NCBI GenBank assembly: GCA_937863565.1
Contig: CALMGJ010000003.1
Coordinates: 1 to 33,486 of the forward strand
DNA: 33,486 nucleotides
Direction of reading: 5' to 3'
DNA from: an uncultured bacterium
GTDB lineage: Bacteria; AUK180
The number at the start of each line of letters is the position of its first letter. Position 1 is the first letter of the stretch. Positions 340-23,154 of this stretch are shown here, one piece after another. Made by a program: the position numbers and the translations under genes. The notes under the pieces were generated by a model. The model was not told the origin of the DNA. It did not search any database and saw nothing but the letters and a program-made list of their open reading frames with translations.

Positions 340-344
340 ATACT

Positions 345-1644: not shown

Positions 1645-1649
1645 GTATT

Positions 1650-4644: not shown

Positions 4645-4645
4645 A

Positions 4646-7105
4646 ATGGAAAATTTCTCGGAAGAATCCAAGCGCATCCTGAAACGCGCGAGCGAATACG
4701 CGATAAATCTGAACAATGAACTCCTCTCACCGGAACACATACTGCTCGGGATACTCGACCTGGGAGAATCCGATATGGCCAGCTCATATCTGATCAAGAA
4801 GGGTGTTCTGAAAGATGAGGTCCTGAAGTCCGTAAAAATGATCGAGCGGCCGAAACTCCTTTTCCCTTTCCTCCAGGTAACTTTCGCTCCTAACACGAAA
4901 AACCTGATAGACATGGCCCTCACGGAGGCGAGGAACCTTCAGGAAGAACTCGTTCAACCGAAACATATCCTGCTTGCCATGCTCAGGCTCGAAGATTCCT
5001 GGGCTACCAAGATCATTCAAAATCTCGGCCTTGAACCGAAGGAACTCTACAAAGAATTCTATGCGATAATAAGAACTAAGAACAAAAGAGTGAAACCCTC
5101 GGCGATGTTCGAAGAGAAGGAGGAGTTCTTCAAAGCGAACCCCGATTCCGAAACCCCGAACCTGGATGAATTCTCGAGAGACCTTACCGACCTTGCCGCC
5201 AAAGGAAAACTGGACCCCATCATCGGCAGGGAAAAGGAGATCGAGCGCCTTATCATGATACTTATGAGAAGGAAGAAGAACAATCCCGCACTTATCGGCG
5301 AACCGGGGGTGGGCAAGACCGCGATCGTGGAAGGTCTCGCACAGAAGATCGTGAAAAGCAGCGTCCCGGAAAATCTCAAGAATAAAAAGATCAAGATGCT
5401 CGATCTTGCCGCGATCGTTGCGGGAACGAAATACCGCGGGCAGTTCGAAGGCAGGATGAAGAAGATCCTTCAGGAATTGGAGAACGCCCAGAATGTGATC
5501 CTTTTTCTTGACGAGCTGCATCTCGTCGTCGGAGCAGGTTCTGCCGAAGGATCATTAGATGCCTCTGCTATGATGAAACCGGCCTTGGCCAGAGGCGAGA
5601 TACAGTGCATCGGCGCGACGACGCTGGATGAGTTCAGGAAACACATAGAGAAGGACAGAGCGCTGGACAGAAGATTCCAGAAGATACTCGTCAATGAACC
5701 GGGCATTGAGGAGACGATCAAGATCATCGAGGGCATCAAAGATAAATACGAGGCATTTCACAAGGTTGTCTTCACTCAGGAAGCGATCCGCGCGTCCGTT
5801 CATCTTGCCAAACGCTATATTACCGACAGGTTCCTTCCCGATAAGGCCATTGACCTCATAGACGAATCCGGAGCCAATGCCCGCATCAAGGCCCTTACCC
5901 TGCCCAAAGAAGTGACCGATCACGAACTCAAGATAGAAAAACTCCTGAAGGAGTTCAAGATGTACTTGAACAATCAGGACTTCATAAAGGCTTCGGAGAA
6001 GAACACGGAGCTTGAGAAGATCAAAGCGGATTACGAGAAGAAGAAGGAAGAATGGATAGAGAAAAAACTTAATGAGATAAAAGTGATCGACGAGAATCTG
6101 ATTGCCGAGGTCGTGTCGACAGCCACGAACATTCACGTGTACAGGATCGCGGAAGGCGAAGGTCAGAAACTTCTGAGGATGGAAGAGGATATCCATAAAA
6201 GGCTGATCGGGCAGAACGAGGCGGTCAATGTCCTCGCAAAAGCGATCAGGCGCGCCCGTTCGGGGATGAAGGACCCGCGCCGGCCTATCGGATCCTTTAT
6301 ATTCCTTGGGCCTACGGGAGTAGGGAAGACCGAACTGGCCAAAGCGCTCGCAGAATTCATTTTCGACACGGAAGATGCGCTTATCAGGATAGACATGTCG
6401 GAATATATGGAGCAGTATTCAGTATCAAAGCTCATAGGAGCGCCTCCGGGATATGTGGGATACGAAGAAGGCGGTTTTCTGACGGAAGCGATAAGAAGAA
6501 GGCCCTATTCTGTTATTCTGTTCGATGAAATGGAAAAAGCGCACCCGGATCTTTTCAATGTTCTATTACAGATACTCGATGACGGACGCCTTACGGACTC
6601 GGACGGACGCGTAGTCGACTTCAAGAATACGGTGATCATCTTCACTTCCAATATCGCGGCAATGGAGATATCGAGCGCCAAGAAACTCGGGTTCAATCTC
6701 AACATTACCGAAGAACAGAACTATGAGGAGATGCGCGCTAAAGTTCTCGAATATCTTAAAAAGAGCGTGCGGCCCGAGTTTTTGAACAGGATCGACGAGA
6801 TCATCGTTTTCAAACAGCTCAACAAGGATGAACTTTACCTCATTATCGAGATCATGCTGGATGAACTGCGGACACGCCTTAAGGCGAAGAATCTTGATCT
6901 CAAGGTCCCGAAAAGCGTAAAAGACCTTATTCTGGAAACCGGTTACAATCCCGAATACGGGGCCAGGCCGCTCCGCCGAGCAGTACAGTCACTCATCGAA
7001 GATATGCTGGCCGAGGAACTGTTGAAGGATACCGGACTTGAGGGAGGCACGATAAAATTGAAGAAGGTAGGTGAGAAGATCGGCTTCACTTTTGAAAAGG
7101 CATAA
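4646..7105 (+). CDS. clpC: ATP-dependent Clp protease ATP-binding subunit, ClpC type
   Basis: Two N-terminal Clp repeats (PEHILLG, PKHILLA), Walker A motifs GEPGVGKT and GPTGVGKT, a short UVR-like middle coiled coil, a KLGF ClpP-binding-type loop and YGARPLRR; 819 aa. Confidence 0.93.
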   Translation: MENFSEESKRILKRASEYAINLNNELLSPEHILLGILDLGESDMASSYLIKKGVLKDEVLKSVKMIERPKLLFPFLQVTFAPNTKNLIDMALTEARNLQEELVQPKHILLAMLRLEDSWATKIIQNLGLEPKELYKEFYAIIRTKNKRVKPSAMFEEKEEFFKANPDSETPNLDEFSRDLTDLAAKGKLDPIIGREKEIERLIMILMRRKKNNPALIGEPGVGKTAIVEGLAQKIVKSSVPENLKNKKIKMLDLAAIVAGTKYRGQFEGRMKKILQELENAQNVILFLDELHLVVGAGSAEGSLDASAMMKPALARGEIQCIGATTLDEFRKHIEKDRALDRRFQKILVNEPGIEETIKIIEGIKDKYEAFHKVVFTQEAIRASVHLAKRYITDRFLPDKAIDLIDESGANARIKALTLPKEVTDHELKIEKLLKEFKMYLNNQDFIKASEKNTELEKIKADYEKKKEEWIEKKLNEIKVIDENLIAEVVSTATNIHVYRIAEGEGQKLLRMEEDIHKRLIGQNEAVNVLAKAIRRARSGMKDPRRPIGSFIFLGPTGVGKTELAKALAEFIFDTEDALIRIDMSEYMEQYSVSKLIGAPPGYVGYEEGGFLTEAIRRRPYSVILFDEMEKAHPDLFNVLLQILDDGRLTDSDGRVVDFKNTVIIFTSNIAAMEISSAKKLGFNLNITEEQNYEEMRAKVLEYLKKSVRPEFLNRIDEIIVFKQLNKDELYLIIEIMLDELRTRLKAKNLDLKVPKSVKDLILETGYNPEYGARPLRRAVQSLIEDMLAEELLKDTGLEGGTIKLKKVGEKIGFTFEKA

Positions 7106-10100
7106 AGCGCTCGGTATTCTGATCCTCGCCGTTCTTGTTGTGGTGTTTTTATGGCTTGTCCTTTGCGCTTTGGTCCCTGTACACCTTAAAAAAAAATACG
7201 GCATAACTTACCAGAGCATTCATTTAAACTTCAAGGGTGTTCTTCATCTTGATAATGCCGTCTACGATACGGAAGCGTTCCGGCTCGAAGCCGGATATGT
7301 GTCCGCATCACTCTTTGAAGCATTGGCAGGAAAGCCTTCGCTCAATATCGGCCAAGGCCGGCTTACCGTTAAAGATCTGAAAAGCATTTCCGGGCCACGC
7401 GCCTCCGGAATCGCCGCGCTCACCGCCCACGACATTTCCATTATAGTTCGAGGCAGGGATATCGGATCCTTTAACGCGGTCCTGAGCGGAGAGGAACTCT
7501 CAGGAACATATGCCGGGCCTTTCTTTAAAGCATCGTTCAGCCTTTCCGGAAACAAGGTAAAAGCGGAAAGCATCAACTTCCCGTTATTAAAGAATTTTAA
7601 AGCCGAATATAATCTTAAAGAAGAAAAGGGCGAAATGGAAGCAGGCCCCTGGAGGGCCGGATTCAGAAAATCCGGGGACGGTTTTCTCGTTGAAGGAGAG
7701 GGGATAGACCTGGAGGCGGGAGCAAGGACCATAAGGATCAGGGAGCTTGCGTATAAAGATTTCTCAATGACTGGCGAAGCGGATATCGAAAAGAAAGAAT
7801 ACCGGGGAGTGATCAGGAATTCCAAAAGTAAAAGCATAACATTCACCGGAACGCCCGAAGGTGTAAAGGCGTTTTCCGAGACCGGCGCCCAGATCCTTTA
7901 TCTGAATAAAAATACAGTGGCAGCCGATCTTTTTTTAAAGGATATCATTCCTTCTCCGTTTAATGCATATCTGAAACTCTCCGGAGATCCCGCGAAAAAA
8001 ATTGATATTGCCCTCAATAATATTACGTATGAAGGAGAGAATATTGAATCCCTGAAAGGGATTCTGGATGCCGGGAAAAAGACGCTCAATCTCTCCAACG
8101 AACCGGGAAATATCAACATATTCTCTCGTCTGGACAAATACGAAGCAACCATTGAAATAAGATCGTATGATATTAATTACCTTGCGGCGCTTATAAGAAG
8201 AGTATCCGGCCTGGCCCTGGGATCCGGAGTGATATCCTATGCTTTTATCGTGCTTAGAGCATCAGGCGATCATTCGGTGACCGCCGAACTCGAGGGCCTT
8301 GATATCGCCGGCCTGCGCGATATCCGGGTGACCATAGAAAAAGGCCAGCCGGAGGCGCAGTTCGCGCTCACCGCTTTCTACAGGGATGCCGTGTTAAAAG
8401 GACGGTTTGATGAAAAAGGCCTAAAAGGCCGCCTCTCAGGGCATTATTCCTCCGGAGCGTTCAGGGTAGAATTCACGGATATCGCGGCGGAAATGAACAG
8501 AGATGGCCTTGTATTTCTGGACATGAACCCTTTGCAGATAAAGATGGACAGATATACGGCAGATGTCTCCGGGAAAATGTACTATAAGAACAGTACTCTC
8601 ATTTTTGATCATGTCCGTTTCCTCGATGGAGATTTCCACGGGACCATGGACCTTCATAAAAATTCGAAGATCGATTCACGGATCGACCTTTCCGTTCTTG
8701 ATAAGAACCTTCCTTCCGGGGTTGCGATAAGCATCGGCAAAAGGCAGGAGCATTTTTTTATTCTTCTTGATCACGATATCCTGAAATGCGATCTGATATT
8801 CAAGAAAACGGTCGAGATCAACGGGCTCATGTTCAAAAAAGACGGCATCACCGCCGCTTTTGACGGAACATTCGGCAATGGCGTTCTTTCCGGGGAATCA
8901 GCCGTGAAAGGAGAACATTTCGAGGTCTCCGGAAATATTTTTCTCAAAGCGGAGGAAAAGGAAGGGACGTTTTTCGTGCATAATCTTAGACTTCCCGGGA
9001 ACGAGTTCAACGATTCCTATGTGAATTTCAGGCTTTCCGGAGATATCGCGTTCACCGGCGCTCTCGGCGCAGGGATTCTTTTTTCCGGGACCTGGTCCCG
9101 CGGGAAGTACTTTATAAATGCCTCGCTGGATGCGGCTGTCATAGACCTTGGGGAAAAAGGCATCTGGAAGATCAGCGGTAGTGCTCTTTTGAACAACCGG
9201 GATGCTCCGGAACTCACCTGCGATATTTCCGGGGAATCAAGCGGATTCGAGGCGTCCGGGCAGACAATAGGGCAATTCAGCTTCAACACCGTTTTCAGGT
9301 ATGCCGCCGGCGTTCTGAACCTGAATTTTTTCTATATTGACGGCGTAAATCTGAGAACTTACGGAAAGGGTATTTACAAAAGCGCGAAGGAGATGAAATT
9401 CCTTTTCAACAGCTTTGCCTACAGGAAAGAGAATTTCAGTTTAACGCTTTCGGGAGAGGTCGATATCTTCGGAGGTATCAGATATCTGGATATAAGGGAC
9501 ATCAAGCTCGTTTCGGGCGGCACGCTGGCCTTGAAGAGACTCCTGTGGACGGCAGGCCCTTCCGGTGCGTTCAGCGCGGAATCATTAGTTCTTAACCTAT
9601 TCGGGCAAAAGATCGGGGGCGATATAAAAGGGAATATCGGCAACGGTATATTCAGCGGAGAGCACAAGGACCTTTTCATCGGCGGCACTGCCTATGCGGG
9701 CGGTCCCGTCTCTGTAGAACCTAAAGGTAAAGGAAGATTCATCATAAACATCAAGGAAACCGTGAAAAAGGCTCTTATGCCGATAATCGAGGCCAATGTG
9801 AGGTTCTCCGGTGATGAAGTGCTCGTCGACGATCTGTATTTCCACCGCGAGAAGGGTTCTCTTTTCGCAAGGGGAACTCTCGGCGGGAACATTAGCCTTT
9901 ATCTCAAACTGGAGGATTTCCCTCTGCGCTCCAAGCAGCCTTTCTTCTCCTGCGATATCCTTGCCGGCGGAGAGATCAATGCGGGAGGAAGTTTTTTAAG
10001 GCCGGATATTTTCTTCGATATAAGTTCGGAGAAGGGAAGTGTGAACGAACTCAAGTATAAAGAGTGCCGGTTCCGCGGGCGTATCGCGGACAATATTCTC

Positions 10101-11396
10101 TTCATCAGCGATCTTATGCTCCAAACGGAGCGTTCAAAGATATCCGCACCCGATAGCGCAAAGATCTATTTGAAAAAAAAGAAGAGTATGGAGGATTATT
10201 TCCTGTCTTTGAGCGGCTTTCTTTCCGTTACCGATCTGAGCCGCCTTCTTCCCGGGCTCTTTTCTTCGGGAAAGGGGAATTTCGAGTTCTCCATGACGCT
10301 TCGGCCTTATGCCGAAGTGCCCGTTGTGGGAAGAATGGCCGTCGACGGGCAATCCTCCCTGAAGGAAGGTTTCGATAATATTAAAGCTGAGAATTTCACT
10401 TTTCAGATCGATGATGAAGGGAGTATCACGCATGCAGGCAAGATCATTATAGCGGGGAACCCCGTATCGATAAGAAAAAGCGGAGATTCTGCAATCGATT
10501 TCGAATTCTCCGAATTCACGAGGTTCAGTCTTTCCTCTATCGGACTTTCGACTTTTGTGAAGGGGAAAGTGACCGTTGACCTTGAGAAAGGCATATCAGT
10601 GGCCTCTTCAGGACTTTATGCAAAAGAAGGTTTTCTCCGCTATGACCCTTTCCAACGGCAGGGTGGCGCGGGTTTATTGCCGGTCTCTTTGGATCTCAAT
10701 GTCTCTTTCGAAGAAGTGAGACTGATGAATTCCTTCTATTCAGGATTGATATCGGGAGAGGCAATGATCACCGGCGAAGTGCCCGATGTGCTGTTCGAGG
10801 GGAAGGTGAATTCCTCAGAAGGTCAATTGAAGTTCTTCGGAAGGGATTTTAATGTGGAGAACGCCAATCTCACTCTCGGAGATAACCCCCGGATCAATGT
10901 GAACGCCTCGGGAACTTTTAGTTTCGACAGGCAGTATTTCGTCACAATCAATATCTTCGGAGATCCGTTTAATCCGCAAATGGCCATTTCTTCCAATCCC
11001 GAGATGAACACGGACGAACTTAAAGGAAAACTTTTCTCGGAAGGCTCTATCGCGACCGGGCTCGATATCCTGATCTCGAAATATTCAGGACCGTCGGGGG
11101 GATTCATAGGCAGGATATCCTTCATGCTTCAAAAATACGTGCAATTCTCGGGGTTCAACGTGAAGATATCGAATCCTCTTCTCGGCGGAACGGAAACCGA
11201 TATAAGCGTCGGGATAACAGGCCACCTGGACAGGTTCTCCTTGGATACGAAACTGGCTTTCTTCAAATATAACGATTCTTATAAATTCTCTCCGGAGTTC
11301 AATATCGGCTTTAAGGTCAATAAAAACCTCGAATTGGACCTCAATGTGGGCGGCAAGGATTCGAAGATCGTTTTTGCACCTACGATAAGGTTTTAG
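7071..11396 (+). CDS. TamB/AsmA-like translocation-assembly or lipid-bridge protein (start may be TTG 7092)
   Basis: N-terminal TM anchor followed by about 1400 aa of Gly-rich amphipathic beta-strands. The C-terminal region (GQLKFFGRDF...NPRINVNA...IFGDPFNPQMAISSNP) resembles the TamB C-terminal domain. Confidence 0.75.
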   Translation: MRRSASLLKRHKALGILILAVLVVVFLWLVLCALVPVHLKKKYGITYQSIHLNFKGVLHLDNAVYDTEAFRLEAGYVSASLFEALAGKPSLNIGQGRLTVKDLKSISGPRASGIAALTAHDISIIVRGRDIGSFNAVLSGEELSGTYAGPFFKASFSLSGNKVKAESINFPLLKNFKAEYNLKEEKGEMEAGPWRAGFRKSGDGFLVEGEGIDLEAGARTIRIRELAYKDFSMTGEADIEKKEYRGVIRNSKSKSITFTGTPEGVKAFSETGAQILYLNKNTVAADLFLKDIIPSPFNAYLKLSGDPAKKIDIALNNITYEGENIESLKGILDAGKKTLNLSNEPGNINIFSRLDKYEATIEIRSYDINYLAALIRRVSGLALGSGVISYAFIVLRASGDHSVTAELEGLDIAGLRDIRVTIEKGQPEAQFALTAFYRDAVLKGRFDEKGLKGRLSGHYSSGAFRVEFTDIAAEMNRDGLVFLDMNPLQIKMDRYTADVSGKMYYKNSTLIFDHVRFLDGDFHGTMDLHKNSKIDSRIDLSVLDKNLPSGVAISIGKRQEHFFILLDHDILKCDLIFKKTVEINGLMFKKDGITAAFDGTFGNGVLSGESAVKGEHFEVSGNIFLKAEEKEGTFFVHNLRLPGNEFNDSYVNFRLSGDIAFTGALGAGILFSGTWSRGKYFINASLDAAVIDLGEKGIWKISGSALLNNRDAPELTCDISGESSGFEASGQTIGQFSFNTVFRYAAGVLNLNFFYIDGVNLRTYGKGIYKSAKEMKFLFNSFAYRKENFSLTLSGEVDIFGGIRYLDIRDIKLVSGGTLALKRLLWTAGPSGAFSAESLVLNLFGQKIGGDIKGNIGNGIFSGEHKDLFIGGTAYAGGPVSVEPKGKGRFIINIKETVKKALMPIIEANVRFSGDEVLVDDLYFHREKGSLFARGTLGGNISLYLKLEDFPLRSKQPFFSCDILAGGEINAGGSFLRPDIFFDISSEKGSVNELKYKECRFRGRIADNILFISDLMLQTERSKISAPDSAKIYLKKKKSMEDYFLSLSGFLSVTDLSRLLPGLFSSGKGNFEFSMTLRPYAEVPVVGRMAVDGQSSLKEGFDNIKAENFTFQIDDEGSITHAGKIIIAGNPVSIRKSGDSAIDFEFSEFTRFSLSSIGLSTFVKGKVTVDLEKGISVASSGLYAKEGFLRYDPFQRQGGAGLLPVSLDLNVSFEEVRLMNSFYSGLISGEAMITGEVPDVLFEGKVNSSEGQLKFFGRDFNVENANLTLGDNPRINVNASGTFSFDRQYFVTINIFGDPFNPQMAISSNPEMNTDELKGKLFSEGSIATGLDILISKYSGPSGGFIGRISFMLQKYVQFSGFNVKISNPLLGGTETDISVGITGHLDRFSLDTKLAFFKYNDSYKFSPEFNIGFKVNKNLELDLNVGGKDSKIVFAPTIRF

Positions 11397-11480: not shown

Positions 11481-13553
11481 ATGAAAAGTTCTCTGGCGAT
11501 AGTCCTTACCGTCCTTTTGGTTTTGCCGGCCTCGCCGACCTTCTTCAACTATCCTTCGGATATGATGAATATCCCTACAACGAGGATACTGGGGAATCTC
11601 AATTACCATATGGGACTTTCGATGCTTATGGCTACAACGCCTTACGGCTATAAATTCAATACGGACTGGTTCGAAGAGGATGCTTCATTCTCTATGGGCC
11701 TTCATATACCTTGGAACCGTCTGAAGATCGAATTCACCTGGGTCCAATTCACGATGGTGCAGGGCCTGGGGCAGTACGGAACGGCACAGATCAAACTCAG
11801 GATCTTTGACGATCCTTTTGAACGCTTCTCAAAAGAATTCCTTGCAGACAATCCAAGGCTCAGGATCCTGCCGTCAATTGCTTTCGGGATCAGGAACATT
11901 GCCTCCAACAGCTTCAGATATATAACACCTACCGGGAATGATGCCGACTACATCACCAACAATTCATTCTTTATCGTATTCTCTAAATACCTTTCCTACA
12001 GGGACAATTCGAACATGATGCTGACATTCGGCCTCGGAGGAAGAGAATTCGTGGGAAGCGGGAAGATGCGGAATGCCGGGTTCTTTTTCGGCCTTGAACA
12101 GTCCTTCTTCCTCGAAGGCGGGAATTATTTACGGTTCTTTACGGAGTACTCTTCACAAGGTATCGCATTCGGCGGCGTCCTGAAGCAGCACAGGCTGTTC
12201 GCGAAGATAGGACTTCAGAACCTTCAGACCGTTTTCAATTCGCTGAAGGAGAACCGGGGCGTTGAAATTAACGTTGGGATCGGATATGAGGATTCCTTCA
12301 ATCCTGTTTTTAAATTGCTGAAACCCTCTAGCAACAAAACGAAAAAATACAAGATCATCCCCGACATCTTCGTTGACAGAAGGGTGATCCCCGAAAGGAG
12401 ACTTATGTTCGCCGTGCCGTCCTATGTCAGCGAGGCGGACCTGCCTGCTCCGATATACACTGCGGGGGAAACGGTCGAAGAAGAGGTCAAGGTCGTTAAA
12501 AAGGATACCGGACTTCAGCTTAAGATGAAACCGATCCTGTTCGCTTCAAATTCCGCCAGGATCCTTTCCGAATCTTATGCCGTTCTGGATAAGATCGTTG
12601 CCGTGTTGAACGAATATCCCGATTATGCGGTGATCATCGAGGGGCATACCGATACTCTCGGTTCCATGCATTCCAATTTCTCTCTTTCGAAGAACCGCGC
12701 GGAAGCGGTGAAATCGTACATACTGAAAAAACTTAAAAAACCGTCGGCGGACAGCATTTATACCTTCGGTTTTGCTTCAAAGGTCCCCATCGCTTCCAAC
12801 TCTACCGACCTGGGAAGGAAACTCAATAAAAGAGTGGACTTCTACCTTTTCGAGAAGAGCAATATAGGATCGGAAGTAGAATCAAGGAATGGGAAAGAGA
12901 AAGAGATAAGCGATGAATTGAACAGATTGGCCCTTGCCGTCCCGAAGGAAAAACCCGGGGAAGAGCCGGTACCTCCCGTTGAAGAGAAACCGAAAGAGAC
13001 TCCGAAAAAAGAAGTGACGCCGGCGCCCGAGGAAAAGCCGTCCGCTTCATTCGAGGACATGCTGAAGGAAAAAGTCGCCGCAAATCAGTTGCCCGAGGCG
13101 ATAAAGATGCTCGAGGAGAAGATCGGATCGGAAAAGAGCATGGTACAGAAGCTTAAACTCAAAAAAGAACTTAACGGGATATACTATAAGCATGCCAATG
13201 ATCTTATTAACGCGAAAGACATCGCGGGAGCCTCCAAGTATTTCGAACTTACCAAAGAGGTCCCGAACTCCAAGGAATACGAGGAGTCATATTACATCCT
13301 CGGGCAGATAGAATACAATAAGGAGAATTACCAGAAATCGATAGATTATTTCAAAAAAGTTCTTGAGAACTATAAGTACATAGATGCCAAAGTATACGAC
13401 AATGATGACGAAGCAGTGTTCAAGATCATAGCATGCTTTATAAAACTCAATAATATCAGTGCGGCGAAAAGCCTTCTTGAGGCCTTCCCGAACAACTATC
13501 CTGAAAGCCCTCTAAACGAGAAGGTCAAGGTCCTTTCCGATAAGCTCAAATGA
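11481..13553 (+). CDS. Outer-membrane protein: N-terminal barrel-like domain, OmpA peptidoglycan-binding domain, Pro/Glu linker, C-terminal TPR (CpoB/BamD-like)
   Basis: Signal peptide; OmpA motifs ILFASNS, EGHTDTLG, LSKNRAEAV, NKRVDF; PE/PK-rich linker; TPR helices YYILGQIEY...YPESP. Confidence 0.85.
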   Translation: MKSSLAIVLTVLLVLPASPTFFNYPSDMMNIPTTRILGNLNYHMGLSMLMATTPYGYKFNTDWFEEDASFSMGLHIPWNRLKIEFTWVQFTMVQGLGQYGTAQIKLRIFDDPFERFSKEFLADNPRLRILPSIAFGIRNIASNSFRYITPTGNDADYITNNSFFIVFSKYLSYRDNSNMMLTFGLGGREFVGSGKMRNAGFFFGLEQSFFLEGGNYLRFFTEYSSQGIAFGGVLKQHRLFAKIGLQNLQTVFNSLKENRGVEINVGIGYEDSFNPVFKLLKPSSNKTKKYKIIPDIFVDRRVIPERRLMFAVPSYVSEADLPAPIYTAGETVEEEVKVVKKDTGLQLKMKPILFASNSARILSESYAVLDKIVAVLNEYPDYAVIIEGHTDTLGSMHSNFSLSKNRAEAVKSYILKKLKKPSADSIYTFGFASKVPIASNSTDLGRKLNKRVDFYLFEKSNIGSEVESRNGKEKEISDELNRLALAVPKEKPGEEPVPPVEEKPKETPKKEVTPAPEEKPSASFEDMLKEKVAANQLPEAIKMLEEKIGSEKSMVQKLKLKKELNGIYYKHANDLINAKDIAGASKYFELTKEVPNSKEYEESYYILGQIEYNKENYQKSIDYFKKVLENYKYIDAKVYDNDDEAVFKIIACFIKLNNISAAKSLLEAFPNNYPESPLNEKVKVLSDKLK

Positions 13554-13810
13554 AAAGGTTCAGAAAAAGATCCGATATCCTTGAGAGGGATGAACATGGC
13601 GTGATGGTACTGTATGATCCGGCTACCGGTATCCCGTATTCGCTCGAGGGTTCGGCAAGGGAAATATGGAAACTGCTGGAGCGCGGGATGACTGTAGAGG
13701 AGGTCCTGGAGAAACTCGAGGAACGGTTCGAGAAGGATCCTTCCATGAGAAGGGACATCGAGGAATTTCTCGCAGATTGCGTTAAAGAGGGTCTTGCGGA
13801 TGTATTTTAG
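13550..13810 (+). CDS. PqqD-family RiPP recognition element (RRE)
   Basis: 86 aa; VLYDPATG..YSLEGSAREIWKLL, TVEEV...L.ERF, DIEEFL..C.KEGL; sits next to a radical SAM gene. Confidence 0.9.
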   Translation: MKRFRKRSDILERDEHGVMVLYDPATGIPYSLEGSAREIWKLLERGMTVEEVLEKLEERFEKDPSMRRDIEEFLADCVKEGLADVF

Positions 13811-14789
13811 CTCCCCCTTCGAGCTTTATGTTGATCTTACGGGAAAATGCAATCTCAACTGCGATTTCTGTATGCGGAAGTGGAAATACTACACCGGCCA
13901 TAAAGATGACGGAAGGATTGTCCAGGCCCTTGCCGAGGAGATCGTAAAAAATGACATCCCGGGCATCGTGATAACTGGAGGGGAACCTTTTCTCGCCCCG
14001 GGTATATTCGAGTTCATAATATTCCTTAAATCGTATAAAAAGAAGATCAAGATTACAACAAACGGGACTCTCGTGAACGGCAATACGGCGGATTTTTTAA
14101 AAAAATACGGCGTTAACGAAGTGCAGGTCTCTATTCACGCATCATATGCCCGGCTTGGCGATGCGATGAACGGCGTCAGAGGATCTCACGCTAAAACCGC
14201 CGCGGCTCTTGATATCATGCTTGAGAAAAACATCAATGTGACTACGAAGACCACGGTCACGGCCCGCAATATCCGCGATATTCCCGCCCTCTGTAAAATG
14301 CTTTCCTCAAAGGGGATAAAGAAAATGAAATTCAGCGAGGTTTTCCAGATGGGCTCGGCATTCCGGAAGAACATGAAACCTTCAGCGGCGGAGCTGAAAA
14401 AACTTGCCGCGTTCTTCGATAATCTTGACGATGAAAGGGTCATTTTCCAGAGCGAAACGCTGAACGCGCTCAAGAACAAGTTCGCCGCGGTCTGCTCTCT
14501 GGGCGACAAATACGCGACCACGATGGAGATCCTTGCCGACGGTACCGTCCTCCCGTGCGCTTACGCCGTGGTTTTCGAAGAAGGGCTCAATATTTTCAAA
14601 ACAGGCCTGAAAGGAGCCTGGGAAGCATTAACGGATTACAAAAAATACAATACACTGCCCGATGAATGCATCGGTTGCCCCGGCGCATCAGCTTGCTCAG
14701 GCGGATGCCCGGCACGGGCACGCATATATAAAACCGCGAAGGACCCCCTTTGCCCCGTAGGAAAGAAGAATGAAAAAGAAATGGTCTAA
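13794..14789 (+). CDS. Radical SAM/SPASM-domain peptide maturase
   Basis: CNLNCDFC (CxxxCxxC), TGGEPF, TTNGT; SPASM cysteines C-SLG...GTVLPC...CIGC-x5-C-SGGC...DPLC. Confidence 0.92.
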   Translation: MRMYFSSPFELYVDLTGKCNLNCDFCMRKWKYYTGHKDDGRIVQALAEEIVKNDIPGIVITGGEPFLAPGIFEFIIFLKSYKKKIKITTNGTLVNGNTADFLKKYGVNEVQVSIHASYARLGDAMNGVRGSHAKTAAALDIMLEKNINVTTKTTVTARNIRDIPALCKMLSSKGIKKMKFSEVFQMGSAFRKNMKPSAAELKKLAAFFDNLDDERVIFQSETLNALKNKFAAVCSLGDKYATTMEILADGTVLPCAYAVVFEEGLNIFKTGLKGAWEALTDYKKYNTLPDECIGCPGASACSGGCPARARIYKTAKDPLCPVGKKNEKEMV

Positions 14790-14916
14790 ACCTAAGATCA
14801 AAAAGGTCGCAGTTTCGGTGCGATGCAATCCTGCACGCCCTCAGTTCATAACCTGTGATGCGCTAAACCCGCAAACGGCCACTAGTTGCACGAAGAACAA
14901 GATCGGCCTGTCATGA
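14770..14916 (+). CDS. Putative RiPP precursor peptide, 48 aa (MKKKWSKPKIKKVAVSVRCNPARPQFITCDALNPQTATSCTKNKIGLS)
   Basis: Hand-translated and below the ORF-track cutoff. Purine-rich AGGAAAG lies upstream, it overlaps the rSAM end by 20 nt, and it has a WxxPxI leader motif and three Cys in the core. Confidence 0.75.
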   Translation: MKKKWSKPKIKKVAVSVRCNPARPQFITCDALNPQTATSCTKNKIGLS

Positions 14917-14921
14917 CCCGG

Positions 14922-15836
14922 TTAACGCTTTAAAGCGGCTATCTCCTCTTTACACAGGGCAATTCCGGGGGAATAATCCACCGCAACGGCATTCCTTAAA
15001 GCTATTTTCAGAAAGCATACGGCCTTCCCGGATTTCCCCGCCCGTCCGTATGCATTGCCGAGATTTCTTGCGCACACATAAAGACCGAACAGGTTACCGG
15101 TCGGCAGGACCGTCTCATAAGCTTTCTTTAAACATCTCAGCGATTTAATATTCTCGCCTGTTCTTATATACAATTGACCGAGATTATTAAGGCTCATCGC
15201 CAGTCCGTTATTGTCGCCGACAGATGTTTTGATCTTCAAAGACTCCTTGTAAGCTCTCTCCGCCGGGCCGTGCTGCCCGTTGCGGGCATAGAAAGTCCCG
15301 AGTTCGTTCTTTACATTGGCGATATGAACAAGAAGGCGGTTCCGTACTGCGATCTTCAGCGTCTCATTAAGATGTTCCATGCATTTACCGTCCTCGTTCA
15401 GTTCCTTATATAATATGGCCGCATTGCAGTGCATTACGCACAACGAATCAGCCTCGGATGTCCCTTTGTAAATATCAAGCGCTTTAAGATAGTATTGTAA
15501 AGCATCTTTTCTCCTGTTCTCAAGATTCCGAAGCGAGCTTCCCAAAACGGCATATGCCAAAGCCAGGCTAAGCTTCAGATCCGATCTTTTGGCATACGGG
15601 ATCGCTCTTTTCGCGTAAGCCGCCGCTCTGGTTTTAAGACCCATAAGATTATAAAGGTTCGCAATTGCAAGGCGAGCATCAATATATCCTGCAGCATCTC
15701 CCGATGAACGCGTCAATCTGCACAGATGAGCCGAATCTCTGACCGCATTATTGAAATCACCGAGATGACGGTATACTTCTCCCCTCAATTTCAATGCGTC
15801 ATGGAATAAGGCTTTTGCAATATTCAAGGAATTCAT
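14922..15836 (-). CDS. Tetratricopeptide-repeat protein
   Basis: Repeated TPR helices (LRGEVYRHLGDFNNA, ALQYYLKALDI, NELGTFYARNG...AYKESLKI, SLNNLGQLY, NLGNAYGRAG). Confidence 0.88.
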   Translation of the reverse strand: MNSLNIAKALFHDALKLRGEVYRHLGDFNNAVRDSAHLCRLTRSSGDAAGYIDARLAIANLYNLMGLKTRAAAYAKRAIPYAKRSDLKLSLALAYAVLGSSLRNLENRRKDALQYYLKALDIYKGTSEADSLCVMHCNAAILYKELNEDGKCMEHLNETLKIAVRNRLLVHIANVKNELGTFYARNGQHGPAERAYKESLKIKTSVGDNNGLAMSLNNLGQLYIRTGENIKSLRCLKKAYETVLPTGNLFGLYVCARNLGNAYGRAGKSGKAVCFLKIALRNAVAVDYSPGIALCKEEIAALKR

Positions 15837-15853
15837 CTTCTTCTCATGAACAT
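15833..15853 (-). CDS. Putative leaderless uORF MFMRRR coupled to the TPR gene
   Basis: The minus strand reads ATG TTC ATG AGA AGA AGA TGA. The stop overlaps the TPR start (ATGA) and the ATG lies 6 nt after TATAAT. Confidence 0.45.
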   Translation of the reverse strand: MFMRRR

Positions 15854-15859
15854 AAGGGC

Positions 15860-15888
15860 ATTATAGCAAAGAAGAGCGAAAATGGGAA
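15860..15888 (-). promoter_or_regulatory. Extended -10 promoter for the TPR gene
   Basis: Minus strand TTCCCA (15888-15883), 17-nt spacer ending in TGC, then TATAAT (15865-15860). Confidence 0.7.
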
Positions 15889-15946
15889 ATGACATGATAC
15901 GGAGGAGCCCATATGTGAAAATAATCACAGTAATTGAGTATTGCCT

Positions 15947-15974
15947 TTGAGTATTTTTTTAAATAATGTATAAT
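15947..15974 (+). promoter_or_regulatory. Probable promoter of PorV-cargo cassette 1
   Basis: TTGAGT (15947-15952), 16-nt spacer, TATAAT (15969-15974); SD AGGAGGT at 16021-16027. Confidence 0.55.
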
Positions 15975-16030
15975 GAACCCGTGAGAAGAAAAAAAATCTA
16001 TATAATTATTCATACTGATAAGGAGGTAAC

Positions 16031-16957
16031 ATGAAGAAGTGTTTTCTCATCATCGGGATCATTGTGATCTCTGCTGCATTATTTTCCGCAACGACGGCCG
16101 GGACGGCCGCGGCTGCATTTTTGAAGATAGGGGTCGGCGCGAAGCCGTCAGCCCTCGGGGATGCGTACATAGGGATAGCGGACGACCAGAATGCGGTTCT
16201 ACTGAACCCCGGCGGATTATGCTTTCTGGAGAAGGGGATCGTCTCGTTCACTCATCTGAACTGGATAGCTGACACGAACATAAACAGCCTGACGGCCGTA
16301 TACGGACTGAAGGGCATAGGGACATTCGGCCTGACCTGGGAGAACCTCAATTACGGGGTGATACAGGGCACGAACGAACTTGGCGAGGAAACGGAGGAGT
16401 TCACGCCTCAGGATACTCTTTTCACGCTTGCGTACGGCAGGCAGATGGGAGAGAGCCTCGGCGTCGGTTTGAACCTGAAGTACATCTCGTCGGTGATACA
16501 GGATTACAGCGCCGGGACGGTGGCGTTCGACATAGGGCTTCTGTATAAGACGGAGCTTGCGGGCAAACCTGTGAAGGCGGGCTTATCGGTCCGCAATGTC
16601 GGAGGGAAGATGACCTATGATGTGGAGGGCGATTCTCTTCCGATGTATTTCGGTATCGGGGCGAGCTATGTGGTCCTTTCGACGGACACGAACAATGTGA
16701 TGGCGGCATTGGACATAGGCAAGGCGTCTGATACGGACCTGAGGTTCAATATCGGGGCGCAGTACAGCTTCAAGGATTTCCTTGCGATCAGACTGGGATA
16801 CAAACTCGGCGATTATGATGTTGAGGGCTTCTCGGGCGGCTTGGGCGCGGGCTATACGCTTTCCAACGGGATGAGGCTTGCGCTTGATTATGCCTACGGC
16901 TCCACATCGAGCGAGTTCAGCGATGTCCACAGGATATCGTTCTCGTTCTTGTTCTGA
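16031..16957 (+). CDS. PorV/PorQ-family (FadL-like, UPF0164) outer-membrane beta-barrel, copy 1
   Basis: Signal peptide; FLKIGVGAKPSALGDAY; NPGGL; AFDIG; RLGY; LDYAY; C-terminal HRISFSFLF. Confidence 0.88.
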   Translation: MKKCFLIIGIIVISAALFSATTAGTAAAAFLKIGVGAKPSALGDAYIGIADDQNAVLLNPGGLCFLEKGIVSFTHLNWIADTNINSLTAVYGLKGIGTFGLTWENLNYGVIQGTNELGEETEEFTPQDTLFTLAYGRQMGESLGVGLNLKYISSVIQDYSAGTVAFDIGLLYKTELAGKPVKAGLSVRNVGGKMTYDVEGDSLPMYFGIGASYVVLSTDTNNVMAALDIGKASDTDLRFNIGAQYSFKDFLAIRLGYKLGDYDVEGFSGGLGAGYTLSNGMRLALDYAYGSTSSEFSDVHRISFSFLF

Positions 16958-16968: not shown

Positions 16969-19900
16969 ATGAAAAAATATCTTCTTTTAACGGTCATTTT
17001 GATGCTGGCTGTTTCCATTCTTGCAAAGAACGGGGGCACTAAAGTCGATTATTTTGACGCAATGTCATTGACGAGCCTGAAAACCGTCCTTCAACCCGAG
17101 ACGATATCAAAACTGGGTATAGCTCCCGCCGTCAGCGCTAAGATCAATAAGATCAAAACCAACGGACAGGACAGATACCTTTTCGATCATGGCAATATGC
17201 GTACGGAATTCTTCGCGGACGGAAGAACCGAATTGACGAGCGCCTTCGGGAAACTTTCCTTCGTTCCCCGGAACTTCTTGATCGGTACGAGATCTGGAAT
17301 ACCGGAATTCAAGGGCATGACCCTTTCGGATAACCGCGCCGGATTCACCGTTGATGAATCCGTAAGAGAGGAATACATCGCAACGAGAAGCCAACTGAAA
17401 CACAATATCTATGTTAAACCAGGTGCTGTAAGAGAAGCGGGAGATTTTACATATGAATGGGAGATCGACCGCGGACATTTCATCATAGAGAACGGCGGGG
17501 AGATAAATAAGGACTTCACAACGGCGGACGATATCACGCTGAAAGCCCGTGGAAAGGATGTCTTCAAGATACTCAAGCCTTTCGCCTACGAAAAGGGGAA
17601 GGATAAAAAAGTGTACGGACATTACGATGTCAGGTTCACCGGTGATAAGATCATTCTCTCGCTCACCGTGCCGATGGACGCTTTCCGGAAAGCATCTTCG
17701 GAGATCGTGATCGATCCCACCGTTGTCGCTTTGGAATATGCGGAACTGTGGGGGACATGGAAGAGGAATATCGCGCAGGATTCCAAGGGCAATATCTACG
17801 TGGCCTACATGGAATACTCCAATTCTTACGAGATCTATGTGCAGAGATCATCAGACGGCGGCACTTCCTGGGGAACCCCTAAGAGATTGTCTTATACGAA
17901 TTATGACGGTTACTATCCTGCGATAGCGATCGACGGCAATGACAATATCTATGTGATCTGGATCGATTGGGATCAGTCGGAAATATCTTTTTCGAGATCC
18001 ACCGATCTCGGAGCTACCTGGTCAATGCAGAAAACGATCTCATTCACGAACCAGTACGGAACCGATTATTATGCCATCGCAGCTTACGGGAACGGGAATG
18101 TATATGTGGTTTACTGGAATTATCTCAATGACAGGATCGAGTTCATAAGATCTTTGGACGGCGGCGCAACCTGGTCAATGGCAAAGATGCTTTTGGATAA
18201 TCCCGCGATCGGGGGTAATTTTGAAACAGCCTTTCCCACGATCGAAACTGCCGGGAACGGAAAACTCGGCGTAGGCATAACATTGAAATATTATAAAGTC
18301 CCCGGAGGGTACCACATAAGGGTCTATTATATGTCTTCGGAGGATACCGGTTCAACATGGACGGTCCCGGAGCTTGTGCAGTATGATGACGATACCAGCT
18401 CCGGCGATGTAGCCGTGGATGCCGTCTCACTGTCATTCGATTCATCGAATAATCCTTATCTTTTCTACTCTGTCAGATCGAATAATAAATGGGGGGATGC
18501 TACGCAAAGAGTAGTTTATACTAAATACGACGGTTTTCTCTGGTCGCCCGTGATGGTCATTGACGGCGAAATCCCGGATAACGGATATGACCCAGTGATC
18601 TCTTTGGACCAGAATGATAATATTTATTTCACCTGGACCCGGTACCAGGACGACACCGAATCGCATATCAGGTTCATCTCGAAGATCGGCGGCATCTGGC
18701 AGGACCTCGTCGAACTCAGCAGGTCCGATAACGGCTACTGGGAGGATTATCCTCATATGCCTCCATATTTCAACACAGAGAGGTCATACGGCGGTCCCTT
18801 CACAGTTTACTATGATTATATAGGGGTCACCGACGACGATACCGATTATGATGATGTTCTCACTTTCCAGTATCTCGGCAGTTCGCAGCAGGCGCCTTCG
18901 GCTCCCGTGATCCTGTATCCGAAGGAGAACGGATATTCGCCGGGACTCGTGATGTGGGAGAGGTCGGATTCGCGAATGAACGTTTACTATCGGCTGGAAT
19001 TCAGCACAAGCGATACCTTCACTACGATCCTGTGTTCCGCGGATAAGGTCCTGAATACTTGGAGCGAAGCGTCAACGGAACTTCTCGAGAACACCGATTA
19101 TTATGTAAGGGTAAGGACAGTGGATGTTCTGGGGCGAGTATCTCCGTGGAGCGCGACGAGGAAGTTCATAACGGACAATACTGCGCCCGTCATCGTAGAC
19201 AGCGCCTCCGAGCCGGATACTGTGACAGGATGGTATAATATTGAAAATCCGCTCGCGCTGACATTCACCGGCCATGACTCCGGCGGTGCGGGGATCTGGA
19301 TGAACAATTATTTTACCGACAAGGATGAATTCACCGAAGTGACATACAACTGGATCGATATAGAGAAGGAGGAGAACCACTTCCCGATAACACCCGGTGA
19401 AGACGACGGGACGGTAAGGGGCGTTCCTCTGAACTTTCTCTTCCCTCTCTACGAGGCGGTATTCTACCGCATCAATATCTGTACGAACGGTTGGGTGTCA
19501 TTGGATTATGATGGCGACGCATGGGGCCTGCCGGAATTTCCTTTTAATGGCAATTATCATTATACTATTGCCGTATATCAGGATGACCAGATGACCTCAC
19601 GCAACGGGAATTCACAGCTCTTCATTGCGGATCTTGAGAACCCGAAGAGGAAAGTGATCACATTCAAGGATTGGTCGATATACTGGGATATCGAAGCGAA
19701 CCTGACCTACCAGGTAGTCCTTTATGAAACGGGGCAGATCGACATCAATATCAAAAAAGGTTCCGAATATATCGATTCCGTACGGCAGATCGGGATCAAT
19801 TACGGGTATAATACCTGGGATGCCATAACATATTACTATTCCCTGATGGAAGGCCTTAACGGCCCCCTCTCGGTCTCATATATCCCCCGCACTTTCGCTC

Positions 19901-22179: not shown

Positions 22180-22208
22180 TTGGAAAAAAATGGAAAAAGT
22201 AATACAAT
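22180..22208 (+). promoter_or_regulatory. Probable promoter of PorV-cargo cassette 2
   Basis: TTGGAA (22180-22185), 17-nt spacer, TACAAT (22203-22208); SD GGAGG at 22221-22225. Confidence 0.6.
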
Positions 22209-22230
22209 AATACATGAAACGGAGGTTCGT

Positions 22231-23154
22231 ATGAAGAAGTTCTTCACGATCTGTACTTTACTTTTAGCTGCTGCATTATTTTCCGCAACAACGGCCGGGA
22301 CGGCCGCGGCTGCATTTTTGAAGATAGGGGTCGGCGCGAAGCCGTCAGCCCTCGGGGATGCGTACATAGGGATAGCGGACGACCAGAATGCGGTTCTACT
22401 GAACCCCGGCGGATTATGCTTTCTGGAGAAGGGGATCGTCTCGTTCACTCATCTGAACTGGATAGCTGACACGAACATAAACAGCCTGACGGCCGTATAC
22501 GGACTGAAGGGCATAGGGACATTCGGCCTGACCTGGGAGAACCTCAATTACGGGGTGATACAGGGCACGAACGAACTTGGCGAGGAAACGGAGGAGTTCA
22601 CGCCTCAGGATACTCTTTTCACGCTTGCGTACGGCAGGCAGATGGGAGAGAGCCTCGGCGTCGGTTTGAACCTGAAGTACATCTCGTCGGTGATACAGGA
22701 TTACAGCGCCGGGACGGTGGCGTTCGACATAGGGCTTCTGTATAAGACGGAGCTTGCGGGCAAACCTGTGAAGGCGGGCTTATCGGTCCGCAATGTCGGA
22801 GGGAAGATGACCTATGATGTGGAGGGCGATTCTCTTCCGATGTATTTCGGTATCGGGGCGAGCTATGTGGTCCTTTCGACGGACACGAACAATGTGATGG
22901 CGGCATTGGACATAGGCAAGGCGTCTGATACGGACCTGAGGTTCAATATCGGGGCGCAGTACAGCTTCAAGGATTTCCTTGCGATCAGACTGGGATACAA
23001 ACTCGGCGATTATGATGTTGAGGGCTTCTCGGGCGGCTTGGGCGCGGGCTATACGCTTTCCAACGGGATGAGGCTTGCGCTTGATTATGCCTACGGCTCC
23101 ACATCGAGCGAGTTCAGCGATGTCCACAGGATATCGTTCTCGTTCTTGTTCTGA
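22231..23154 (+). CDS. PorV/PorQ-family outer-membrane beta-barrel, copy 2 (start revised from 22180)
   Basis: GGAGG lies 5 nt before ATG 22231, giving a clean signal peptide MKKFFTICTLLLAAALFS. The mature sequence is identical to copy 1. Confidence 0.88.
   Translation: MKKFFTICTLLLAAALFSATTAGTAAAAFLKIGVGAKPSALGDAYIGIADDQNAVLLNPGGLCFLEKGIVSFTHLNWIADTNINSLTAVYGLKGIGTFGLTWENLNYGVIQGTNELGEETEEFTPQDTLFTLAYGRQMGESLGVGLNLKYISSVIQDYSAGTVAFDIGLLYKTELAGKPVKAGLSVRNVGGKMTYDVEGDSLPMYFGIGASYVVLSTDTNNVMAALDIGKASDTDLRFNIGAQYSFKDFLAIRLGYKLGDYDVEGFSGGLGAGYTLSNGMRLALDYAYGSTSSEFSDVHRISFSFLF

Follow-up and report, generated by a model that had tools for sequence, protein, structure and literature searches.

The PQQ and mycofactocin systems share an architecture of a discrete PqqD protein and a short radical SAM (rSAM)/SPASM enzyme without a fused RRE, and the mycofactocin precursor ends in Gly-Val-Tyr. 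CteB, PapB and AlbA carry a fused N-terminal RRE. Streptide, darobactin and cyclophane chemistries use aromatic substrates, and the C-x-P-x-R site of sulfatases is the one modified by anSME. In the StsA/StsB/StsC system of Streptomyces sparsogenes, as described in the available part of Precord et al. 2023 (PMC10288494), an MftC-like rSAM enzyme is paired with a discrete RRE and with a precursor whose three Cys are all consumed, giving three thioethers and a mass change of -6 Da. The accessible portions of two further sources state that discrete lasso-type RREs bind a [Y/W]xxPx[L/V/I/F/A] leader motif (Popov et al. 2026, PMC13381572) and that kinase-associated lasso precursors have an invariant C-terminal Ser and are tailored by an HprK-like kinase and an NTP-transferase (PMC9266682; PMC13381572). 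In the available text of the LPP paper (PMC13381572), rSAM/SPASM is never mentioned (0 occurrences).

The locus compared here with these systems lies in a 33,486-nucleotide stretch of DNA from an uncultured bacterium, the whole of which is referred to as the window. Three of its genes overlap serially on the forward strand and encode a PqqD-family discrete RRE of 86 aa (13550..13810), an rSAM/SPASM predicted peptide maturase of 329 aa when read from its ATG (13800..14789; alternative TTG start at 13794) and a putative precursor peptide of 48 aa (14770..14916, stop included). The 20-nt overlap of the rSAM and peptide genes given in a preliminary description of this DNA is exact, whereas the 17 nt given for the overlap of PqqD and rSAM depends on the TTG start; four aligned rSAM homologues start at the position of ATG 13800, which shortens that overlap to 11 nt. 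Nor is the cassette free-standing, since its genes are the last three of an operon of four (ompA/TPR, pqqD, rSAM, peptide). The first gene encodes an OmpA-domain/TPR (YbgF-like) envelope protein of 690 aa (11481..13553, forward strand), with matches to Pfam OmpA (66.3 bits) and TPR and to NCBIfam YiaD/OmpA and YbgF. Its stop codon runs into the start codon of the PqqD gene (ATGA). An OmpA/TPR orthologue lies immediately 5' of the PqqD gene in the window and at loci L009, L011, L013 and L036, and it is translationally coupled to the cassette at all five loci with visible upstream DNA. The link is not obligatory, because in genome G006 the OmpA/TPR gene occurs apart from the cassette, with the peptide located elsewhere beside other enzymes.

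The short ORF with three Cys (positions 19, 29 and 40) that had been noticed after the rSAM gene was confirmed from the sequence and reads MKKKWSKPKIKKVAVSVRCNPARPQFITCDALNPQTATSCTKNKIGLS. It is preceded by a Shine-Dalgarno-like AGGAAAG (14759..14765, forward strand) whose AGGA ends 7 nt before the ATG. A purine-rich stretch of this kind was seen by eye 5' of the peptide ATG in 6/6 loci inspected, most clearly at L009 (AAGGAGG), and the overlap between the rSAM and peptide genes is 1-20 nt at every locus. Ten distinct peptide variants were collected, all of which have three Cys, begin with a W-x-x-P leader and end in Leu-Ser, with W5, P8, C19, N20, P21, P24, Q25, C29, P34, Q35, C40, L47 and S48 invariant. 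The leader motif of the window peptide, W5-S-K-P8-K-I10 (14782..14799, forward strand), fits the lasso-type [Y/W]xxPx[L/V/I/F/A] pattern as defined in the available part of its source (PMC13381572), in agreement with the preliminary description; W5 and P8 are present in 10/10 peptides, with I, L or F at position 10. The putative core, provisionally taken as Cys19-Ser48 (14824..14913, forward strand), holds the other invariant residues, arranged as C-N-P-x-x-P-Q, then C-x4(5)-P-Q, then C-x5(6)-L-S; the window peptide ends in G-L-S.

Strong purifying selection acts on the 48-aa ORF, which is a real gene. Within a genus (one pair), the peptide gene had a dN/dS of 0.28, and between genera (five pairs) pS was 0.73-0.96, at which synonymous sites are saturated, vs a pN of 0.19-0.25, at which replacement sites are unsaturated. 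As judged from sequence identity, the peptide core has diverged less than the enzyme, with peptides 63-73% identical where the rSAM proteins are 49% and the PqqD proteins 35-42% identical, and 50-54% vs 35-36% for peptide and rSAM at class-level distance.

Amongst the nine genomes of the phylum, an rSAM orthologue (E <= 1e-30) was found in five, and in all five the peptide is encoded directly 3' of the enzyme gene, as it is on two metagenome contigs that share one identical peptide. The expectation that homologous loci would carry a conserved downstream peptide was thus borne out, as was the placement of the precursor after its maturase. In the other four genomes, where the enzyme is missing, the corresponding locus is truncated at the end of a contig, not assembled or moved elsewhere, and none of the nine is clearly without the system. 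The peptide family is real, and so far it is found only in one uncultured bacterial phylum.

The assignment of the cassette as an RRE, an rSAM/SPASM enzyme and a precursor proved genuine, with matches to PF05402 and PF04055 and a co-occurring peptide with an invariant W-x-x-P. The PqqD-like protein scored 54.2 bits against PF05402 (cut-off 23.4), and its gene is conserved in five loci (alignment A3). Its best NCBIfam match, in both the window and L036, was ScmD, at 34.3 bits in the window and under the cut-off of 100. The enzyme scored 87.8 bits against Radical_SAM PF04055 and has a CX3CX2C motif for the SAM-binding [4Fe-4S] cluster (CNLNCDFC; 13848..13871, forward strand) whose C17, C21 and C24 do not vary among 20 relatives. 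Pfam SPASM scored 18.7 bits, just under its cut-off of 21.5, and nonetheless all seven Cys of the SPASM region (14493..14753, forward strand), namely C232, C253, C290, C293, C299, C303 and C318, are invariant across the 20 relatives (alignment A6). The enzyme is PqqE/MftC-sized, has no fused N-terminal RRE and retains the Cys for three Fe-S clusters. The AlphaFold2 model (pLDDT 93.3) had its best Foldseek matches with the peptide maturases SuiB (TM 0.78), SkfB, PqqE, CteB and ChlB, and with anSME amongst its structural neighbours, and sequence matches in the PDB were to PqqE (best), SkfB, anSME, SuiB and, more weakly, CteB. No NCBIfam family reached its cut-off for the rSAM enzyme, no curated family was found that claims any of the three cassette products, and the curated thioether maturases PapB (71.9 vs 340) and AlbA (60.5 vs 850) scored below cut-off.

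The cassette resembles PQQ (PqqA/PqqD/PqqE) and mycofactocin (MftA/MftB/MftC) systems in that a small precursor is served by a separate chaperone of the PqqD family and by an rSAM/SPASM enzyme of ~330 aa without a fused RRE. Membership in either pathway was rejected: PqqE TIGR02109 scored 69.5 vs 381 and PqqD TIGR03859 29.5 vs 46, with no E-x3-Y in the core, and MftC TIGR03962 scored 66.7 vs 265, with a peptide ending in L-S rather than Gly-Val-Tyr. No PqqB/C or MftD/E/F genes were found near the cassette. SynChlorMet (SCM, TIGR04248-TIGR04252) is also similar, as ScmD is the best NCBIfam match of the RRE, ScmE and ScmF are amongst the enzyme matches and a ScmC/HprK-related protein occurs at sister loci, but the equivalogs themselves (ScmD 34.3 vs 100, ScmE 78.4 vs 400, ScmF 77.9 vs 400) lie far under cut-off, and one rSAM enzyme is present instead of two. 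ScmA TIGR04252 matched 0/6 peptides at E <= 10 and was over cut-off in 0/9 genomes, with no match at the peptide loci; no ScmC-like gene adjoins the window cassette, and the window lineage is without ScmC. The stated absence of PQQ and mycofactocin patterns was upheld, ScmA patterns were absent as well, and the peptide had no SCIFF-family match.

With paeninodin-type lasso peptides and linear polyphosphorylated peptides (LPPs) (PadeK, PsmK/PsmN; LppA/K/B/S/D/N), as described in the available parts of the sources, the cassette shares a discrete RRE and the W/Y-x-x-P-x-[L/I/V] leader (PMC9266682, PMC13381572), here W5, P8 and I/L/F10 next to a PqqD-type RRE, and with the kinase-associated precursors of those sources it shares the invariant C-terminal Ser (10/10 peptides). 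A lasso peptide was rejected, as neither an Asn-synthetase-like cyclase nor a B2 leader peptidase was present among the six ORFs scanned (11481-16957); unlike the paeninodin and LPP systems, the locus has no lasso cyclase or SpI peptidase, and its core enzyme is rSAM/SPASM. StsA/StsB/StsC (NCBIfam NF045574), as far as its available description goes, is matched in the short MftC/PqqE-region rSAM/SPASM enzyme, the discrete PqqD-type RRE and the three-Cys precursor. However, StsB is not homologous at family level (relatives 75-94 bits vs a cut-off of 625, and StsB absent among the best 25 NCBIfam matches listed for the enzyme), and the present cassette has a lasso-type W-x-x-P leader. In the same partial description the StsA acceptors are Gly in a hairpin, whereas the peptides here have no invariant Gly and too few residues after the last Cys for a hairpin. 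A Cys-bearing core with an rSAM/SPASM maturase is shared with ranthipeptides and SCIFF (CteA/CteB, PapA/PapB), CteB also being a fold neighbour, but the RRE is a separate gene here, unlike in CteB and PapB, and the precursor has three Cys rather than six and lies downstream of the enzyme gene, not upstream. The cassette is a real new family within a known kind, the RRE-dependent rSAM/SPASM RiPP cassettes, and the earlier designation as an undescribed class is likely too strong.

The cassette had also been called minimal, which applies in this lineage only, as the peptide of sister lineages is accompanied by HprK-like, NTP_transf_5 or transglutaminase-like genes. In G006, a PF14907 gene (47.1 bits) and an HprK-like gene adjoin the peptide, and loci of a second family of the phylum (f2) have HprK/ScmC-like and transglutaminase-like genes. 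The HprK-like assignment is weak (E 2e-4 to 8e-3), as is that of the transglutaminase-like gene (DUF553, 22.2 bits in L036; the L012 copy has no Pfam match). None of these accessory genes lies next to the cassette in the window's lineage; at E <= 0.01, the transglutaminase-like gene was not found in the seven genomes of the window's family (f1) and the f2 kinase-like protein had no match in the window's own genome. In the sister lineages, the invariant C-terminal Ser would probably be phosphorylated, as in paeninodin-type lasso peptides, by a kinase that the window lineage lacks.

We hold with moderate confidence that the last three genes of the operon constitute a RiPP maturation cassette, in which RRE-guided rSAM/SPASM chemistry joins the three Cys through thioether cross-links. 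The discrete PqqD-like RRE would bind the W-x-x-P-x-[I/L/F] leader and present the peptide core to the rSAM/SPASM enzyme, which would then connect the three invariant Cys to carbons of nearby residues. Of these residues, the invariant N20, Q25 and Q35 are candidates for the acceptors. At most three small rings would result, lying within the C-[N/D/E]-x3(4)-P-Q repeats and in the C-x5(6)-L-S unit at the C-terminus. Small-ring thioethers from Cys to side chains would resemble ranthipeptide/SCIFF chemistry; to our knowledge, a Gln or Asn side chain has no precedent as a thioether acceptor. Thioether cross-linking appears to be the likeliest chemistry by analogy with described systems and by exclusion of others. 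The core has neither E-x3-Y nor a C-terminal Tyr, and none of its aromatic residues is invariant (F, W, I, T or S occupies position 26 in the 10 peptides), which makes PQQ, mycofactocin, streptide, darobactin and cyclophane chemistry unlikely.

The same cassette and substrate could nevertheless undergo another reaction, such as anSME-like oxidation of Cys to formylglycine, epimerisation or aliphatic C-C joining, the Cys then forming disulfides, binding metal or reacting at a later step. We regard this as unlikely, albeit deserving of some weight, given that families of several different chemistries are about equally low-scoring as the best full-length curated matches of the enzyme (PqqE 69.5, MftC 66.7, anSME 70.4, GeoRSP 79.9, PapB 71.9) and that its structural neighbours include the C-C-forming SuiB and PqqE in addition to anSME. 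Moreover, full-length similarity mispredicts function in such enzymes, according to the available part of Precord et al. (PMC10288494). The C-N-P-A-R of the window peptide does resemble the sulfatase C-x-P-x-R site, but its Arg is not conserved, the position being R, H, I or K with R in only 2/10 peptides. Additionally, the variants share no acceptor pattern of the aromatic, Val-repeat or Tyr/Glu kind, and three invariant Cys in repeated local units best fit a reaction at each Cys. A reading in which the short ORF is no substrate at all, the rSAM and PqqD proteins acting on another protein such as OmpA/TPR and the ORF being conserved for some other reason, is very improbable, even though the four genes are translationally coupled with OmpA/TPR first in 5/5 loci with visible upstream DNA. 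The peptide bears a leader motif of the RRE-binding type, invariant in 10/10 variants, and it travels with the enzyme, whereas in G006 the OmpA/TPR gene is without the cassette and a peptide variant lies elsewhere. One Logan source (longest contig 1575 nt) contained both an rSAM protein 54% identical to that of the window and a peptide identical to that of G006, the two being linked by their common source only.

For the product of the thioether-forming cassette, a lineage-wide physiological role, as an envelope-associated factor, a signal or a cofactor-like molecule, is favoured over a fast-evolving bacteriocin, because conservation is higher in the core than in the enzyme, no phylum genome is clearly without the system and no protease or exporter was found adjoining the cassette in the window's lineage. 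These same three observations, together with the PQQ/mycofactocin-like architecture, would also suit a redox cofactor made from a peptide or a small enzyme subunit, in the manner of PQQ, mycofactocin or QhpC, rather than a secreted natural product. Such a product seems improbable, as no partner dehydrogenase or further tailoring genes were found beside the window cassette and the operon partner is an envelope protein. Sister lineages, moreover, add a kinase and a nucleotidyltransferase, which are lasso/LPP-type tailoring enzymes of released peptides, and a transglutaminase-like putative peptidase.

A bolder version of the thioether reading, which we consider doubtful, would place the cassette in a kinase-less branch of an undescribed RiPP class. 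Its members would combine a lasso-type W-x-x-P leader and a discrete RRE with a PqqE-sized rSAM/SPASM enzyme linking the three Cys as thioethers to Gln/Asn side chains in repeated C-x4-P-Q units, and the C-terminal Ser would be phosphorylated in other branches. In this phylum the product would act not as an antibiotic but as an envelope-associated factor, inherited vertically, present lineage-wide and expressed together with the OmpA/TPR protein. As for the precursor having been described as unannotated, this is only partly the case, as two of its relatives are entered at NCBI under the name 'hypothetical protein'.

Four consecutive genes on one strand of the window make up the operon, namely those for an OmpA-domain/TPR protein (11481-13553, 690 aa), a PqqD-like protein (13550-13810, 86 aa), a radical SAM/SPASM protein (13794 with a TTG start or 13800 with an ATG start to 14789, giving 331 or 329 aa) and the putative precursor peptide, a short ORF at 14770-14916 (48 aa). 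The PqqD start and the OmpA/TPR stop share ATGA, and the peptide ORF overlaps the radical SAM gene by 20 nt. The mechanical ORF call placed the radical SAM start at the TTG, whereas four aligned homologues begin at the ATG position two codons on (13800), so that a PqqD/radical SAM overlap of 11 nt is more likely than one of 17 nt. The preliminary description had thus read the peptide, with Cys at 19, 29 and 40, and the 20-nt overlap correctly, while its 17-nt overlap is disfavored by the homologue starts. The sequence AGGAAAG lies upstream of the peptide ATG, its AGGA ending 7 nt before, and the peptide stop is followed 5 nt later by the end of a convergent TPR gene. Promoter-like sites numbered 13, compared with 7.1 +/- 2.6 in shuffles, with none seen immediately upstream of the peptide ATG; sites resembling terminators occurred at the background level, with none seen 3' of the peptide on the + strand, and Rfam returned no RNA family in 13000-16100.

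Conservation of the short ORF was assessed across the nine species genomes of the window's phylum, five of which carry an orthologue of the enzyme (E <= 1e-30), with identities to the window enzyme of 48-49% in three genomes and 37% in one that belongs to the second family. The expectation that a conserved peptide would follow homologous enzymes was borne out, as an ORF for the same peptide (48-51 codons) lies behind the enzyme in all five enzyme-bearing genomes, overlapping it by 1-20 nt. A metagenome scan with peptide motifs added two further contigs, with one identical peptide, behind PqqD and radical SAM genes. Against a set of 5.8 billion proteins, the single-peptide query gave no match and a seven-peptide profile recovered seven called proteins, two of which carry the NCBI name "hypothetical protein". 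Among the ten distinct peptides, M1, K2, W5, P8, C19, N20, P21, P24, Q25, C29, P34, Q35, C40, L47 and S48 are invariant, which defines a precursor family with a fixed W5, P8, three Cys, two P-Q pairs and a C-terminal L-S. Identity of the peptide DNA between genera is just 62-67%, with synonymous sites saturated (pS 0.73-0.96) and pN at 0.19-0.25, and the one within-genus pair gave a dN/dS of 0.28. At the protein level, the identity of the peptide (63-73%) exceeds that of the enzyme (49%), the RRE (35-42%) and the OmpA/TPR protein (46-51%). Altogether, the short ORF is a genuine gene. The window's own genome holds one copy, and the ESM Atlas placed the peptide near unnamed clusters only (0.91-0.92), the named lanthipeptide and lasso leader clusters scoring 0.76, which is chance level.

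None of the four enzyme-less genomes represents a clean absence, and the system may therefore be phylum-wide. In G006, a divergent peptide begins 17 nt from the contig start, so the enzyme would fall off the contig; the G006-identical peptide and a radical SAM gene product 54% identical to that of the window were both recovered from a single source whose longest contig is 1575 nt, and may lie on one contig. The OmpA/TPR orthologue of G005 is truncated by a contig end, as is the G008 homologue of the kinase-like gene of the second family, and G002 has no OmpA/TPR orthologue either. Wherever upstream DNA is visible (the window and loci L009, L011, L013 and L036), the OmpA/TPR gene sits immediately upstream of PqqD with overlapping stop and start (5/5). 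Behind the orthologous OmpA/TPR gene of G006 (L046, G006:C34) there is instead a 183-nt gap (1315-1497) and then a convergent gene, a slot that the PqqD-radical SAM-peptide cassette fills in the sister genus (L011), so that this position must have seen gain, loss or relocation of the cassette. A large ORF also lies upstream of the OmpA/TPR gene in G003 (L013); upstream of the window operon, positions 2368-11396 encode an SppA-like S49 peptidase, a ClpB-like double AAA+ ATPase and a 1441-aa TamB-like protein.

The G006 peptide, which has a Pro-rich spacer ahead of its first Cys and a P-L-S end, is located elsewhere than OmpA/TPR (L038, G006:C56, 18-173). It is convergent with a PF14907 nucleotidyltransferase gene (165-1073, minus strand; 47.1 bits, above the cut-off) and a gene for a P-loop protein related to the HprK/ScmC-like proteins of the second family (1057-1860, minus strand), which we read as putative counterparts of the lasso/LPP tailoring pair. 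In the second family (L036, and L012 in G007), two additional genes follow the peptide. The product of one (4150-4716 in L036; 737-1312, minus strand, in L012) is weakly transglutaminase-like, with DUF553 at 22.2 bits in L036 and no Pfam match for the G007 copy, and is a possible leader peptidase. The other (4721-5419; 1-840, minus strand) is HprK-related/ScmC-like at E 2e-4 to 8e-3. The HprK-like assignment in the sister loci, based on weak NCBIfam matches, is itself weak; a PDB profile search gave nothing meaningful for these proteins, and the AlphaFold2 model of the HprK-like protein had a pLDDT of 36.2. The transglutaminase-like gene was found in none of the seven genomes of the window's family, and a search of the window's genome gave no match to the kinase-like gene (E <= 0.01). 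The cassette, initially called minimal, therefore deserves that name in the window's lineage only, since the second family and G006 carry extra genes beside the peptide. The convergent TPR gene beside the window cassette (14922-15836, minus strand) is not conserved in other loci, and its product weakly matches the cyclophane-RiPP TPR protein HaaT at 37 bits, relative to a cut-off of 1125, a match that reflects generic TPR similarity.

By its sequence-level features, the cassette appears to behave as an RRE-dependent radical SAM/SPASM RiPP system. Pfam recognized PqqD at 54.2 bits and Radical_SAM at 87.8 bits, with SPASM falling slightly short (18.7, cut-off 21.5), and NCBIfam assigned none of the three products to a curated family. 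The top NCBIfam match of the enzyme reached 94 bits of the 380 needed, that of the PqqD-like protein was ScmD (34, cut-off 100), and the sole match of the peptide was to L40e, by chance; tested with the ScmA model, the peptide did not qualify as ScmA. Because all family scores lie under their cut-offs and ScmA was not recognized, the cassette is placed outside the PQQ, mycofactocin, SCM, PapB, AlbA and StsB families.

The AlphaFold2 model of the enzyme (pLDDT 93.3, pTM 0.90) was closest in Foldseek to SuiB (TM 0.78), followed by SkfB, PqqE, CteB, BlsE, ChlB and, lower down, anSME; PDB sequence matches include PqqE, SkfB, anSME and SuiB, with CteB weaker. The CX3CX2C motif and seven SPASM Cys are invariant across 20 relatives. 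In the 329-aa form, the radical SAM core starts right from the N-terminus, with no fused RRE, as is likewise the case in PqqE and MftC. When 1.84 billion representatives were searched with an HMM, two clusters stood out at 601 and 381 bits and presumably correspond to the two families of the window's phylum; about ten more followed at 308-208 bits, before a smooth fall into general SPASM space. Ten scanned next relatives reached no NCBIfam cut-off, their best partial matches being PqqE, MftC and AhbD. In 185,579 species genomes, a pattern scan recovered no relatives at 36% identity or above beyond the four already known; the next full-length matches stood at 23-26%, with a few short segments at 32-39%. 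A word-indexed search returned five proteins at E <= 1e-40, two of them named merely "radical SAM protein [bacterium]", and the other radical SAM/SPASM genes of the window's own genome encode distant paralogues (at most 25% identity across most of their length). The enzyme is covered by no curated model.

The leader offers a candidate recognition site. Discrete lasso-type RREs bind a [Y/W]xxPx[L/V/I/F/A] leader motif, and in a crystal structure the cleft of the RRE is occupied by a WxxPxL leader, as described by Popov et al. (2026, PMC13381572). Here W5, P8 and I/L/F10 are fixed, and we infer that the discrete RRE would recognize them; complex prediction for RRE and peptide scored 0.47, and one control 0.54. 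In the core, no aromatic residue is invariant across the ten peptides, and neither E-x3-Y nor a C-terminal Tyr occurs, which makes PQQ or mycofactocin chemistry unlikely. Streptide, darobactin and cyclophane substrates are aromatic, and such chemistry is also unlikely for a core of this composition. An anSME-like reading of C-x-P-x-R was weakened, R occurring in only 2/10 peptides.

Each invariant Cys belongs to a repeated unit (C-N-P-x-x-P-Q; C-x4(5)-P-Q; C-x5(6)-L-S). In StsA/B/C, an MftC-like radical SAM enzyme and a discrete RRE convert three Cys into three thioethers (Precord et al. 2023, PMC10288494). This is the nearest precedent for the cassette. Based on the core pattern, the three Cys in repeated units and this precedent, we favor an enzyme that would form as many as three thioethers, for which N20, Q25 and Q35 are the candidate acceptors. 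In ranthipeptides, Asp, Asn, Thr and Glu are among the acceptor residues. Precord et al. (2023, PMC10288494) also caution that similarity over the full length mispredicts what such enzymes do, and a chemistry other than thioether formation therefore retains an appreciable probability. Additionally, lasso kinases act on the conserved C-terminal Ser of precursors (review PMC9266682), and the C-terminal Ser is probably phosphorylated in kinase-bearing relatives.

The predicted modified peptide outconserves its enzyme across a candidate phylum and shares an operon with an envelope protein, which favors a function within the cell over one in warfare. To our knowledge, few RiPPs have a known cellular role. 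Judged by sequence, the system is unusual in its phylum-wide conservation, a core more conserved than the enzyme, its coupling to an envelope gene and its downstream precursor. It ties radical SAM systems to a lasso/LPP-type leader and C-terminal-Ser tailoring; its chemistry could widen the known set of radical-SAM cross-links, and the three genes are a small, clean target for heterologous expression. Our literature search found no paper on this combination and none on "SynChlorMet"; no paper naming HprK was among the matches listed for HprK/radical SAM/RiPP/PqqD, and papers naming the window's phylum had no RiPP topic in their titles or abstract openings. The supplementary list of 3,421 predicted clusters of Precord et al. 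could hold relatives.

Eight long multi-domain relatives of the enzyme (P0010, P0013, P0015, P0023, P0027, P0041, P0065 and P0141; 594-914 aa) were considered as kinase fusions and proved instead to be tandem radical SAM/SPASM proteins, with two radical SAM regions each and, in most, SPASM matches too; they resemble two maturases arranged in tandem within a single polypeptide. Elsewhere in the window, a PorV/PorQ-like outer-membrane protein (16031-16957) is followed by a giant protein of 1693 aa (16969-22050), and a second PorV/PorQ-like gene (22180-23154) with a giant protein of 1236 aa (23179-26889) comes consecutively after this pair. The giant proteins carry BNR, Ig-like or fibronectin domains, and the pairs look like type IX secretion shuttle-and-cargo modules.
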